Of a DNA stretch of 64,000 nucleotides, positions 8,037-21,471 are shown one piece after another (position 1 is the stretch's first letter; each line of letters starts with the position of its first letter). The notes under the pieces are model-generated. The model saw only the letters and a program-made list of their open reading frames with translations, was not told the origin of the DNA and made no database searches. Both the position numbers and the translations under genes were made by a program. The stretch lies in the NCBI RefSeq assembly GCF_054482595.1, contig NZ_CM137008.1. One strand, written 5' to 3'.

Positions 8037-8803
8037 TGAGCAATTTATTAGGCCCCCGTGACGCCAACGGCATTCCGGTCCCGATGACGGTGGATGAATC
8101 CATCGCCAGTATGAAGGCGTCGTTACTGAAAAAAATCAAACGCTCTGCCTACGTTTACCGCGTGGACTGCGGCGGCTGCAACGGCTGCGAAATCGAAATT
8201 TTCGCCACGCTTTCGCCGCTGTTTGATGCAGAACGCTTCGGCATTAAAGTCGTTCCTTCACCGCGTCATGCGGATATTTTACTGTTTACCGGCGCGGTCA
8301 CCCGTGCAATGCGATCCCCTGCGCTGCGTGCGTGGCAGTCCACGCCGGACCCGAAAATTTGTATCTCCTACGGTGCCTGCGGTAACAGCGGCGGGATCTT
8401 CCACGATCTCTACTGCGTGTGGGGCGGTACGGATAAAATCGTCCCGGTGGATGTCTACATTCCGGGGTGCCCGCCAACGCCTGCCGCCACGCTGTACGGC
8501 TTTGCAATGGCGCTCGGCCTGCTGGAGCAGAAAATTCACGCCCGTGGCCCGGGTGAGCAGGATGAACAACCGGCGGAGATCCTGCATGGCGATATGGTGC
8601 AGCCGCTGCGTGTGAAAGTGGATCGCGAAGCACGCCGCCTGGCAGGTTATCGTTACGGTCGCCAGATTGCCGATGACTTCCTGACACAGTTAGGGCAGGG
8701 CGAAGAACAGGTTGCACGCTGGCTGGAAGCGGAAAACGATCCGCGTCTGAACGAGATTGTCAGCCATCTGAATCATGTTGTTGAAGAGGCGCGTATCCGA
8801 TGA
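8036..8803 (+). CDS. hycG: HycG, hydrogenase 3 small subunit (NuoB-like, 255 aa)
   Basis: [10 protein letters not shown] and GCPP motifs typical of NuoB-type small subunits; 1-nt overlap with the hycF stop. Confidence 0.93.
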
Positions 8804-9210
8804 GTGAAAAGGTGGTGTTCAGTCAACTGAGCCGTAAATTTATTGATGAGAACGATGCCACGCCCGCCGAGGCGCAGCAGGTGGTCTATTACAGCCTGGC
8901 GATTGGTCACCACCTTGGGGTTATCGATTGCCTGGAAGCGGCGCTCACCTGCCCATGGGATGACTATCTGGCATGGATTGCCACTCTGGAGGCGGGCAGC
9001 GAAGCCCGCCGCAAAATGGAAGGCGTACCGAAGTACGGTGAGATCGTCATCGACATTAACCATGTGCCGATGCTGGCCAATGCATTCGATAAAGCCCGGG
9101 CAGCGCAAACTTCGCAGCAGCAGGAATGGAGTACAATGCTGTTAAGTATGCTGCATGATATTCATCAGGAAAACGCCATCTATTTGATGGTGAGGAGACT
9201 GCGTGACTGA
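8800..9210 (+). CDS. hycH: HycH, FHL complex maturation/assembly protein (136 aa)
   Basis: ORF-track protein and operon position; overlaps hycG stop by 4 nt. Confidence 0.9.
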
Positions 9211-9673
9211 CGTTTTACTCTGTGTTGGCAATAGCATGATGGGCGATGATGGCGCAGGTCCGCTGCTGGCGGAAAAGTGCGCCGCCGCGCCGAAAGGTAA
9301 CTGGGTGGTGATTGATGGCGGTAGTGCACCGGAAAACGACATCGTCGCCATCCGTGAACTGCGCCCTACACGACTGCTGATTGTCGATGCCACGGATATG
9401 GGGCTAAACCCCGGCGAAATCCGCATCATCGACCCGGATGATATCGCCGAGATGTTTATGATGACTACCCATAACATGCCGTTGAACTACCTTATCGATC
9501 AGTTGAAAGAAGACATTGGCGAAGTGATTTTCCTCGGCATCCAGCCGGATATCGTCGGCTTTTACTACCCGATGACCCAGCCGATTAAAGATGCGGTAGA
9601 AACCGTTTATCAACGGCTGGAAGGCTGGGAAGGGAACGGCGGCTTCGCGCAGTTAGCGGTGGAAGAAGAGTAG
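9203..9673 (+). CDS. hycI: HycI, endopeptidase that processes the HycE C-terminus (156 aa)
   Basis: [25 protein letters not shown], the hydrogenase maturation protease family signature; last gene of the hyc operon. Confidence 0.93.
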   Translation: MTDVLLCVGNSMMGDDGAGPLLAEKCAAAPKGNWVVIDGGSAPENDIVAIRELRPTRLLIVDATDMGLNPGEIRIIDPDDIAEMFMMTTHNMPLNYLIDQLKEDIGEVIFLGIQPDIVGFYYPMTQPIKDAVETVYQRLEGWEGNGGFAQLAVEEE

Positions 9674-9744
9674 TTTTTCAATAAGGAATCAGGACAGGGA
9701 TGTTCTTGATGGGGTGAACCAGCTCTGATGCCAAATGCTAAATT

Positions 9745-17200: not shown

Positions 17201-18334
17201 CTACATAGGCAATGTTTTCAACAATCCAAATGCCTCTTTCATCCGATCCTCACTGACCACAAAGGCGCGAAGCTGGTCAGCATCGTCAACGCCGCGCGCC
17301 ACCATTCCCTGGCGTTCGGTATTAATTTGCCAGCGTAAATCCTGACGCTGGGTTTCGCCTGCCAGATGCAGCGGTAATTCCGGCGTTTTGATTTTCACCA
17401 GCATCGCCGGTAGTTTCAGTGGCGTGTTATTGCCGAGAAGATTTTTTGCCAGCACCATCGCGCTAAGTTGAATCGGCTGGAGGAACGGCAATACCTGACC
17501 GTTAATTTCCGCGCAATCGCCCAGCGCGTAAATATCGGCATTACTGGTTTGCAGATAACTATCGACGCAAACGCCGCGATTAATCGTCAGCCCGGCGCGT
17601 CGTGCCAGGGCGGTTTCCGGGCGCAGTCCGGTGGCGGCAATTACCGCATCCACTTCGATACTGCGCTGGCGGTCCAGCGTTGCCAGAATGCCAGAATCTG
17701 TTTTTTCCAGCCCCTGCAACTGAGATTTCAACAACAGATGAACGCCCATCTCCGTCAACCGATGCTGCAAGCGGCTGCTTACTTCCGGTGGCATTAATGA
17801 CGCCAGAATACTGGCAGCGTTGTCGATTAGCGTGACCGCTTTGCCTGCACGACAAAAATCCATCGCCAGTTCGCTACCAATCAAACCACCGCCAACAATC
17901 AACACGCGTCGGGCATCCCGCAGTTGCGTTTCACAGGCGCGATACTCTTGCTGACTATTTAACGTCAGCATTAACTCACGCCCAGGCACAGGCGGGACAA
18001 AGGCACTGGCACCGGTTGCCAGTACTAGCTTGTCGTATTGCCACTGATTATTCTGGCTTTTCACCACACGGGCTTCGGCATCGATATCCGTCACCCAGGT
18101 TTGTGGAAACAGGTGCAGATTAAACTGCTCGGCAAATTCACCCGCCGTCTGGCGGGTAAGGTCATCGGCACGTTGCCCCTGACTGATAACATGGCTGAGG
18201 TCAGGTTTGTTGTACTCATCCATGCTGTCGGCGGCAATCAGGGTTAATGGAATAGTGGCGTCCTGTTTGCGAATATTTTTCACCAGTTGGCGGGCGGCGA
18301 AGCCCGAACCGATGATCACAATGCCGTTACTCAT
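17201..18334 (-). CDS. norW: NorW, NADH:flavorubredoxin oxidoreductase (377 aa)
   Basis: [24 protein letters not shown] Rossmann motifs; overlaps norV stop by 4 nt. Confidence 0.93.
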
Positions 18335-19770
18335 TTTGCCTCCGATGCCAGTTCTTCAAAGACGTCTTTGCCGAGGGAGCATTCCGGGCAGAGGAAGTTA
18401 TCCGGGACTTCACTCCACGGCGTTCCTGGCGCAACGTCCTGCATTGGCTCGCCTTTTGCCGGATCGTAAATCCACTGGCAGACGCTGCACTGCATCCGTG
18501 GGCCGAGGTCAGCCGTCGTGGTGGCAGAGGTTTCTTCTTTAACCACCGTATTCACCGTGCTCTGCGGCAGCGGCGCGAGCGCCCACTGACGGGCGATTTC
18601 GCGACCGTGTTCACGACATAACTCCAGAGCGTCCTGGTCTGGTCGCCATTTGGCTTTCAGGCTAAGCGACATTTCGAAACCCGCATCCTGCAGGCGCGTG
18701 GAAAGACGATCCACCGCACCGCCGCTCCAGCCGTGAGAGCCGAAAGCACTGGCGCGTTTGTTACGGAAGCGTAAACCAGTCATCTCCTCCACCAGCCCGG
18801 CGATTTTCGGCATCATCACGTTATTCATCGTCGAAGTGCCGACCAGCACGCCTTTTGAGCGGAAGACATTGGTCAGGATTTCGTTTTTATCGCTTCGGGC
18901 GACGTTGAAAATTTTCACCGCCACGCGTGGGTCGGTTTCCGCAATCCCCTGGGCGATAGCGTCAGCCATCATGCGGGTGTTATTCGACATGGTGTCGTAG
19001 AAAATGGTGATTCTGTCTTCCTGATAATCAGCGGCCCACTTCAGGTACAGCTCGACAATTTGCGTCGGGTTATCGCGCCAGACCACGCCGTGGGAGGTCG
19101 CTATCATATCGACTGGTAAGTTAAAGCCCAGGATCTCGGTAATTTTCGGCGTTACCAGGCGGCTGAACGGCGTCAGGATATTGGCGTAGTAACGCTGGCA
19201 CTGCTCGAAAAGCTCCGTCTGATCCACTTCATCGTTGAACAGATGCTCGTCGCAGTAGTGCTGACCGAAAGCATCGTTACTGAACAGCACCGCGTCGCCT
19301 GTCAGGTAAGTCATCATGCTGTCCGGCCAGTGCAGCATTGGTGTTTCGACAAAAATGAGCTGTTTGCCGTTGCCGATATCCAGCGTGTCGCCAGTTTTCA
19401 CCACATTAAAATTCCACTCCGGATGATGGTGATGACCATTTATCGAGTCGATAGCGTTGGCAGTACAGTAGATCGGCGTATCGGGAATTTGCGCCATCAG
19501 TTCGGTCAGCGCCCCAGCGTGGTCCTCTTCTGCATGGTTAATCACGATGTAATCGATATCCGCCAGATCGATTTCATTACGCAGGTTCTGCACAAATTCG
19601 CGGCTGAATTTATGGTCGACGGTGTCGATCAGCACGTTTTTTTCTTCGCGGATGAGGTAGCTGTTGTAGCTGCTGCCGCGCAGCGTTTTATATTCCGTGC
19701 CGTGAAAATCACGCACTTCCCAGTCACGTTGACCCACCCAATGAATGTTATTTTTCACCACAATAGACAT
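18331..19770 (-). CDS. norV: NorV, anaerobic nitric oxide reductase flavorubredoxin (479 aa)
   Basis: Metallo-beta-lactamase-like diiron domain, flavodoxin domain and C-terminal rubredoxin CxxC...CxxC ([10 protein letters not shown]...CPEC). Confidence 0.93.
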
Positions 19771-19817
19771 AGCAACCTCAATTTATTCAGCGTGTTCTAA
19801 AAAGATGTCTTGCTAAT

Positions 19818-19833
19818 TGCAGATTGCGTGCCA
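19818..19833 (-). promoter_or_regulatory. sigma54 promoter of norVW
   Basis: Minus strand reads TGGCAC-gcaat-CTGCA (GG-N10-GC), about 45 nt upstream of the norV start. Confidence 0.75.
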
Positions 19834-19888
19834 GTTTTTTATCTGATTGTTTTTACTCTATAAATAAAATTATGCTCATTAATGAGTA

Positions 19889-19944
19889 GTCAAAATGACT
19901 ATCAATCAAATGGTCAATATGACAATATCTATAGTCAAATTGAC
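19889..19944. promoter_or_regulatory. Three NorR enhancer-binding sites (GTCA-N3-TGAC)
   Basis: gtcaaaatgac (19889..19899), gtcaatatgac (19913..19923), gtcaaattgac (19934..19944) in the norR-norV intergenic region, matching the known GT-N7-AC NorR site. Confidence 0.85.
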
Positions 19945-19956
19945 AGTGAGGCAAAG

Positions 19957-21471
19957 ATGAGTTTTTCCGTTGATGTGCTGGCGAATATCGCCATCGAATT
20001 GCAGCGTGGGATTGGTCATCAGGATCGTTTTCAGCGCCTGATCACCACGCTACGTCAGGTGCTGGAGTGCGATGCGTCTGCGTTGCTACGTTACGATTCG
20101 CGGCAGTTTATTCCGCTTGCCATCGACGGTCTGGCAAAGGATGTACTCGGTAGACGCTTTGCGCTGGAAGGGCATCCACGCCTGGAAGCGATTGCCCGCG
20201 CCGGGGATGTGGTGCGCTTTCCCGCAGACAGCGAATTGCCCGATCCCTATGACGGTTTGATTCCTGGGCAGGAGAGTCTGAAGGTTCACGCCTGCGTTGG
20301 TCTGCCATTGTTTGCCGGGCAAAACCTGATCGGCGCACTGACGCTCGACGGGATGCAGCCCGATCAGTTCGATGTTTTCAGCGACGAAGAGCTACGGCTG
20401 ATTGCTGCGCTGGCGGCGGGAGCGTTAAGCAATGCGTTGCTGATTGAACAACTGGAAAGCCAGAATATGATGCCAGGCGATGCCACGCCGTTTGAAGCGG
20501 TGAAACAGACGCAGATGATTGGCTTGTCCCCTGGCATGACGCAACTGAAAAAAGAGATTGAGATTGTGGCGGCGTCCGATCTCAACGTCCTGATCAGCGG
20601 TGAGACGGGAACCGGTAAGGAGCTGGTGGCGAAAGCGATTCATGAAGCCTCGCCACGGGCGGTGAATCCGCTGGTCTATCTCAACTGTGCCGCACTGCCG
20701 GAAAGTGTGGCGGAAAGTGAACTGTTCGGGCATGTGAAAGGAGCGTTTACTGGCGCAATCAGTAACCGCAGCGGGAAGTTTGAAATGGCGGATAACGGCA
20801 CTCTGTTTCTGGATGAGATCGGCGAGTTGTCGTTGGCATTGCAGGCCAAGCTGCTGAGGGTGTTGCAGTATGGCGATATTCAGCGCGTTGGCGATGACCG
20901 CAGTTTGCGGGTCGATGTGCGCGTGCTGGCGGCGACTAACCGCGACTTACGCGAAGAGGTGCTGGCAGGGCGATTTCGCGCTGACTTGTTTCATCGCCTG
21001 AGCGTGTTTCCACTTTCGGTGCCGCCGCTGCGTGAGCGGGGCGATGATGTCATTCTGCTGGCGGGGTATTTCTGCGAGCAGTGTCGTTTGCGGCTGGGGC
21101 TCTCCCGCGTGGTATTAAGTGCCGGAGCGCGAAATTTACTGCAACACTATCGTTTTCCGGGGAACGTGCGCGAACTGGAACATGCTATTCATCGGGCGGT
21201 AGTGCTGTCGAGAGCCACCCGCAACGGCGATGAAGTGATTCTTGAGGCGCAACATTTTGCTTTTCCTGAGGTGACGTTGCCGACGCCAGAAGTGGCGGCG
21301 GTGCCCGTTGTTAAGCAAAACCTGCGTGAAGCGACAGAAGCGTTCCAGCGTGAAACTATTCGTCAGGCGCTGGCACAAAATCATCACAACTGGGCTGCCT
21401 GCGCGCGGATGCTGGAAACCGACGTCGCCAACCTGCATCGGCTGGCGAAACGTCTGGGAATGAAGGATTAA
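19957..21471 (+). CDS. norR: NorR, NO-responsive sigma54-dependent transcriptional activator (504 aa)
   Basis: GAF domain, AAA+ sigma54-interaction domain ([14 protein letters not shown]), C-terminal HTH; start at [18 protein letters not shown] (ATG 19957) so the ORF does not run over its own binding sites. Confidence 0.93.

Follow-up and report, generated by a model that had tools for sequence, protein, structure and literature searches.

The closest described system is the norR-norVW region of E. coli K-12, which is reportedly treated in Tucker et al. 2004 and Justino et al. 2005 (BBRC). The K-12 region carries three GT-N7-AC sites, the promoter CTGGCACGCAATCTGCA and the divergently oriented norR gene; the locus analyzed here is the same one, with the same three-site layout, an identical promoter and the same divergent gene. 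In the work of Tucker et al. (2010, NAR 38:1182, PMC2831303), the minimum DNA with three footprinted NorR sites is an oligonucleotide called NorR123, and the mutagenic primers name the three palindromes sites 1, 2 and 3, site 1 being reported as the site of highest affinity. Replacement of GT-N7-AC by GG-N7-CC in any one site led to the complete loss of induction of a chromosomal norV-lacZ fusion, while methylation protection disappeared at the mutated site only. ATPase activity and open-complex formation required all three sites, and a 266-bp fragment containing the three sites and flanking DNA stabilized a ring-shaped higher-order NorR oligomer (Tucker et al. 2010, PMC2831303). NorR has been reported to regulate both norVW and norR.

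The scheme of norVW activation, established by published experiments on the nearly identical K-12 sequence, would be as follows here. Three NorR dimers, as shown for K-12, would bind the three GT-N7-AC palindromes, and the enhancer DNA would promote NorR's assembly into a higher-order oligomer, which in K-12 is most likely a hexamer. This complex would be present on the sites before NO appears, the K-12 protein binding with or without NO. IHF would bind between the enhancers and the promoter, and the resulting bend, as suggested by the authors of the K-12 work, may help NorR to reach the σ54 RNA polymerase, which would be waiting in a closed complex at TGGCAC-N5-CTGCA. The GAF domain with its ferrous iron center would keep the AAA+ domain inactive until the binding of NO to the iron releases the AAA+ ATPase, and ATP hydrolysis would then remodel the σ54 closed complex, leading to promoter opening and norVW transcription.

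The region under study (positions 19771-19956 of a stretch of 64,000 nucleotides, referred to below as the window) is the DNA that separates norR from norVW on an E. coli chromosome; its 186 bp fill the whole gap between two divergent ORFs. The first gene of the operon, norV (18331..19770, minus strand), codes for the 479-aa anaerobic NO reductase flavorubredoxin (NCBIfam NF003954, 1047 bits vs. a cutoff of 711), and the second, norW (17201..18334, minus strand), for the 377-aa NADH:flavorubredoxin reductase (NCBIfam equivalog NF003437, 684.9 bits vs. a cutoff of 392), in agreement with RefSeq in both cases. On the plus strand, norR (19957..21471) codes for a 504-aa NO-sensing σ54 activator with GAF, AAA+ and DNA-binding domains (NCBIfam equivalog NF003451, 824.9 bits vs. 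a cutoff of 476). RefSeq likewise annotates norV up to 19770 and norR from 19957. Residues 2-503 of NorR align to positions 3-511 of the 512-position NF003451 model, and the Pfam entries GAF, Sigma54_activat and AAA_lid_14 were matched; the C-terminal helix-turn-helix produced no separate Pfam entry at E<=0.001 and is spanned by the full-length NorR model. An Rfam scan of positions 19500-20200 returned no matches.

The 451 bp around the gap agree at 100% of positions with an E. coli chromosome, and 5425 of 5426 complete genomes of this species contain them. Around norR, E. coli strain 120899 is also identical to the window. Between hycI and ascB, however, it carries an insert of 1.27 kb (8452-9724 of the compared sequence), which encodes a hypothetical protein and a helix-turn-helix protein and is absent from the window (at about 9693-9725), and its identity to the window over 10 kb is only 98.6%, from which it follows that the window comes from another strain. 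For comparative purposes, a scan with one genome per species was carried out, which retrieved 80 loci encoding NorR proteins with 78-98% identity, all from Enterobacterales. Both gene starts were available for 78 of them, so that together with the window 79 sequences were compared. The length of the intergenic region in this set varies between 179 and 192 bp, and the ATG at the norV start is kept in all 79.

Taken together, the data presented below make us almost certain that the locus is the DNA that natively controls the divergent norR and norVW genes of E. coli, made up of a NorR enhancer and a σ54 promoter. The architecture of norVW control is already known in detail and there is nothing new in it here: the region is a textbook σ54 enhancer, and our analysis adds little to basic knowledge of it.

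Three palindromes matching GTCA-N3-TGAC, as proposed in the initial annotation, are indeed present: site 1, GTCAAAATGAC, at 19889-19899 (promoter-proximal, about -82 to -92; identical to Site1 of Tucker et al. 2010), site 2, GTCAATATGAC, at 19913-19923 (about -106 to -116), and site 3, GTCAAATTGAC, at 19934-19944 (about -127 to -137). All three were found by pattern match and are the ones named in the mutagenic primers of Tucker et al. 2010. The pattern GTCANNNTGAC has eight matches in the 64-kb window vs. 0.79 expected, a number reached in none of 100 shuffles, and three of the eight matches are clustered within 56 bp at 19889-19944. Counted from the T of TGGCAC, the start of site 1 is 56 bp and the end of site 3 is 111 bp upstream, which corresponds to 71-126 bp when measured from the far end of the σ54 element, and the earlier estimate of about 55 to 125 bp is thus acceptable. 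Less exact is the description of the sites as evenly phased: the start-to-start distances are 24 bp and then 21 bp, so that phasing is only approximate, and it is the uneven 24/21 spacing that is invariant. The exact 24/21-spaced triple is found in 76 of 79 loci, usually at positions -68, -44 and -23 relative to the norR ATG; in the three exceptional loci, either one site is degenerate or the spacing is 24/20. Between TGGCAC and site 1 there are 54-57 bp in 74 of 76 loci. Thus, across Enterobacterales both the spacing of the sites and their distance from the promoter are kept fixed. GTC and GAC show no variation within the sites, whose center is A/T, the family consensus being GTCA-(A/T)3-TGAC; while GT and AC were imposed by the way the sites were selected, the invariance of GTC and GAC goes further than that.

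A comparison with published NorR footprints had been suggested as a check. The reverse complement of positions 19884-19949 matches the 66-bp NorR123 oligonucleotide of Tucker et al. 2010 at 65 of 66 positions, and with +1 placed at 19807 the published footprint limits, -84 and -137, land on minus-strand G residues at 19891 in site 1 and 19944 in site 3. The other suggested check, mutation of individual sites in a norV-lacZ fusion, is already in print (Tucker et al. 2010), with each site found to be essential. By analogy with the K-12 DNA, which differs at 1 of 66 bases from the allele studied here, NorR should occupy these sites and induction should depend on NO, NorR and RpoN.

The σ54 promoter TGGCACGCAATCTGCA, an instance of the TGGCAC-N5-CTGCA element that the initial annotation placed on the norV strand, was found by pattern match at 19833..19818 on the minus strand, with the -24 GG at 19832-31 and the -12 GC at 19820-19. 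There are two TGGCAC-N5-YTGCA matches in the window vs. 0.17 expected. In a σ54 ChIP-seq study, the main-text tables list the identical motif for norV, bound in vivo, with a distance value of 37. Across the orthologues TGGCAC is invariant except in three loci that have TGGCAT, and the -12 region has two clade-specific forms, CTGCAA in 30 loci (Escherichia, Citrobacter, Salmonella, Kluyvera) and TTGATA, which lacks the -12 C, in 34 loci (Enterobacter, Klebsiella and others). The only other match in the window, TGGCACATCTACTGCA at 1880-1895 on the plus strand, lies inside hycA (ORF 1811-2272) on the sense strand. This motif is absent from the main-text tables of the ChIP-seq study and may be a chance match.

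Placing G(-24) at 19831 and C(-12) at 19819 predicts, to within about plus or minus 1 nt, a norV transcription start at 19807 on the minus strand and a 37-nt leader. This start fits the ChIP-seq value of 37, the -84/-137 footprint numbering and the use of ATP and CTP as initiating nucleotides (the sequence being ...GACAT...). From the promoter geometry and the published numbering we infer that norVW transcription begins near 19807, about 37 nt ahead of the norV ATG. The leader contains the norV ribosome-binding site, a GAGG at 19776..19779 (minus strand) located 5 nt before the ATG (19770..19768), which was read from the sequence and whose columns are 80-90% conserved in the 79 loci. The stretch 19799-19812 over the predicted start (AAAAAGATGTC on the plus strand) is also 80-90% conserved in the 79 loci, vs. 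60-90% elsewhere in the leader. It includes a conserved AAGATG near the predicted +1, which may resemble an NsrR half-site. As a candidate, the half-site was rejected: its conservation is not clearly above that of the leader, and the second half overlaps the -12 element and makes a poor inverted repeat.

The DNA between the promoter and the sites had been described as AT-rich and suitable for bending by IHF. An IHF footprint is said to be contained in Tucker et al. 2004 (J Bacteriol 186:6656). The 55-bp spacer between the promoter and site 1 is 80% A+T, vs. a G+C content of 53% for the window, and the whole intergenic region is 69% A+T. According to the literature, IHF binds between the enhancers and the start of norV transcription, and a later paper mentions a "second" IHF site. 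A scan of the window with the IHF consensus is uninformative alone (51 one-mismatch hits vs. 48 expected), and it was the comparative alignment alone that singled out an A/T block beside the -24 element, at 19836..19856 (minus strand), as the best candidate: in the 79 loci no other part of the spacer is so well conserved. Its orthologue consensus on the norV strand, AATCAATnAATTA, agrees fully with the IHF core WATCAR-N4-TTR. An exact match to this core, at a constant distance of 5-6 nt from TGGCAC, is present in about 23 of 76 loci; in E. coli, the copy AATCAGATAAAAA deviates from the consensus by two bases. On sequence grounds, the 19836-19856 block is a likely candidate for an IHF site, possibly one of the two mentioned in the literature. 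Two IHF-like hits between sites 1 and 2 (19900-16) were rejected, as their columns are poorly conserved. The initial annotation spoke of a complete architecture; this stands for the NorR sites and the σ54 promoter, whereas neither the IHF sites nor the norR promoter could be placed exactly.

On the other side of the region, the norR ATG follows the sites at a distance of 13-68 nt. Site 3, the nearest, ends 4 nt before the ribosome-binding site of this gene, a GAGG at 19948..19951 (plus strand) positioned 5 nt before the ATG. The commonest variants in the orthologues are TGAGG and CGAGG, with columns 80-90% conserved. It follows that transcription of norR must begin inside the NorR sites or upstream of them and that the sites must overlap the norR promoter or leader. 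Such an overlap would fit the reported control of norR by NorR. A scan for σ70 promoters, which included 19900-19956, gave no convincing plus-strand candidate for norR; a single minus-strand hit was obtained, no more than shuffles give.

The position of the norR start has a direct bearing on how the sites are read. The mechanical ORF call extends norR to an in-frame ATG at 19882 (19882..21471, 529 aa) and does run over the sites, as had been pointed out; were this ATG the true start, the palindromes would lie within coding sequence and their enhancer function would be secondary. The frame is open throughout, and a start codon occurs at the 19882-equivalent position in about 15 of 79 loci (ATG in 12). 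Yet no purine-rich ribosome-binding site precedes 19882 (AAATAAAATTATGCTCATTAATG), and the upstream ATG is not conserved: in 31 loci there is an in-frame stop within the 17 codons upstream of the conserved ATG, and in 15 loci there is no upstream start codon whatsoever. Another in-frame ATG, ten codons upstream and frequent in other genera, is the ATG within GTCAAAATGAC of site 3. Differences in intergenic length among the loci include non-multiples of three, conservation upstream of 19957 tracks the binding sites rather than codons, and codon-like period-3 conservation in the 79-locus alignment starts only at 19957, where an ATG is present at the equivalent position in 79 of 79 orthologous loci. 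The 504-aa form fills the NorR equivalog model end to end, and RefSeq takes 19957, not 19882. We consider initiation at 19882 highly unlikely and infer from the conserved ATG, the GAGG, the period-3 conservation and the model fit that norR translation starts at 19957; the longer ORF is an artefact of an open frame across regulatory DNA. The initial annotation had favored the same shorter start because the extension would cover the sites. Conservation is a better argument for it than this overlap, and a practical use of the check is that the RefSeq norR start at 19957 is confirmed.

The proximity of the palindromes to norR and the reported regulation of norR by NorR could be taken to mean that they are only operators for NorR self-repression, norVW being activated independently of them. 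There is very little chance of this, since a change in any one of the sites prevents norV-lacZ from being induced in vivo and hampers formation of the open complex in vitro (Tucker et al. 2010); for K-12, these mutants have already refuted it. Autoregulation through the sites is very likely an additional role, not an alternative to the activation of norVW. It is next to inconceivable that the palindromes and TGGCAC are chance matches, even though the region is rich in A+T and the site cores are A/T-rich: the shuffled sequences never gave the observed count; position, spacing and sequence are conserved in 76 of 79 loci from many genera; and there are direct published footprints and mutants. One may also ask whether the enhancer comprises a fourth site. 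Inside norV, at 19723-19733, the palindrome GTCACGTTGAC is an exact GTCA-N3-TGAC located 156 bp from site 1, where 0.79 matches are expected in the window, and it could be contacted, for example, by DNA wrapping round the hexamer, Tucker et al. 2010 (PMC2831303) having proposed that flanking DNA wraps the NorR ring. However, GT-N7-AC at this position is kept in only 26 of 79 loci, and it breaks at a glycine wobble position where all four bases occur, which argues for selection on the peptide WVGQRDW, not on a site. Moreover, the reporter fragment used in the published work stops at 19728 and the 266-bp one starts at 19727, so that both cut the palindrome in half, and fragments halving it still give full induction, cooperative binding and ATPase stimulation. 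We regard a fourth site as improbable; the 19723-19733 palindrome, which spans the Gly-Gln-Arg-Asp codons of norV, is most likely a coding coincidence. The reading that we retain is that of a three-site NorR enhancer acting on the σ54 promoter of norVW.

The sole difference between the enhancer studied here and the K-12 NorR123 oligonucleotide is at position 19916, which is A here and G in K-12. In K-12 and the other Escherichia sampled, site 2 is GTCGATATGAC, an imperfect palindrome with GTCG; here it is the perfect palindrome. The exact 66-bp enhancer is shared by at most 313 of 5423 E. coli records, and A at 19916 is thus a minority allele within the species, present in at most about 6% of complete genomes. 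Outside Escherichia, the A-type site 2 is the consensus in Salmonella, Citrobacter and Enterobacter, and most other genera have the consensus form. Judging from the sequence, one can imagine that the allele raises NorR affinity at what is possibly a weaker site in K-12 and shifts the threshold or the amplitude of the NO response in this lineage, though we hold this to be rather doubtful. Were it true, the 19916 allele would, as a natural variant, tune a promoter on which NO biosensors are widely based, and a natural site-2 variant could interest engineers of PnorV-based nitric-oxide sensors.

The locus is that of K-12, and the enhancers of the two strains are identical at 65 of 66 positions. 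In other proteobacteria, the same regulator family and the GT-N7-AC core are found at norA/norB of Ralstonia eutropha and at hmp of Pseudomonas aeruginosa and Vibrio cholerae (references in PMC2831303 and PMC4601167), and the R. eutropha promoter is reported to need its NorR-binding region (as cited in the same two papers); in this comparison, made from the literature, the targets differ, being a haem NO reductase or a flavohaemoglobin. Looping assisted by IHF is a feature of the σ54 enhancer systems of NtrC at glnAp2, NifA at nifH and PspF at pspA; these, too, have activator sites upstream of a -24/-12 promoter and form the open complex at the expense of ATP, and an IHF bend, likely here, would be common to all. 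NorR is unusual among σ54 activators in its absolute need for all three sites and in its assembly on DNA before the signal (Tucker et al. 2010, PMC2831303). An analogy drawn by the same authors is that with TyrR on three TyrR boxes, where a hexamer is proposed to form on three dimer sites; TyrR, however, acts at σ70 promoters and is a repressor in the three-box arrangement.
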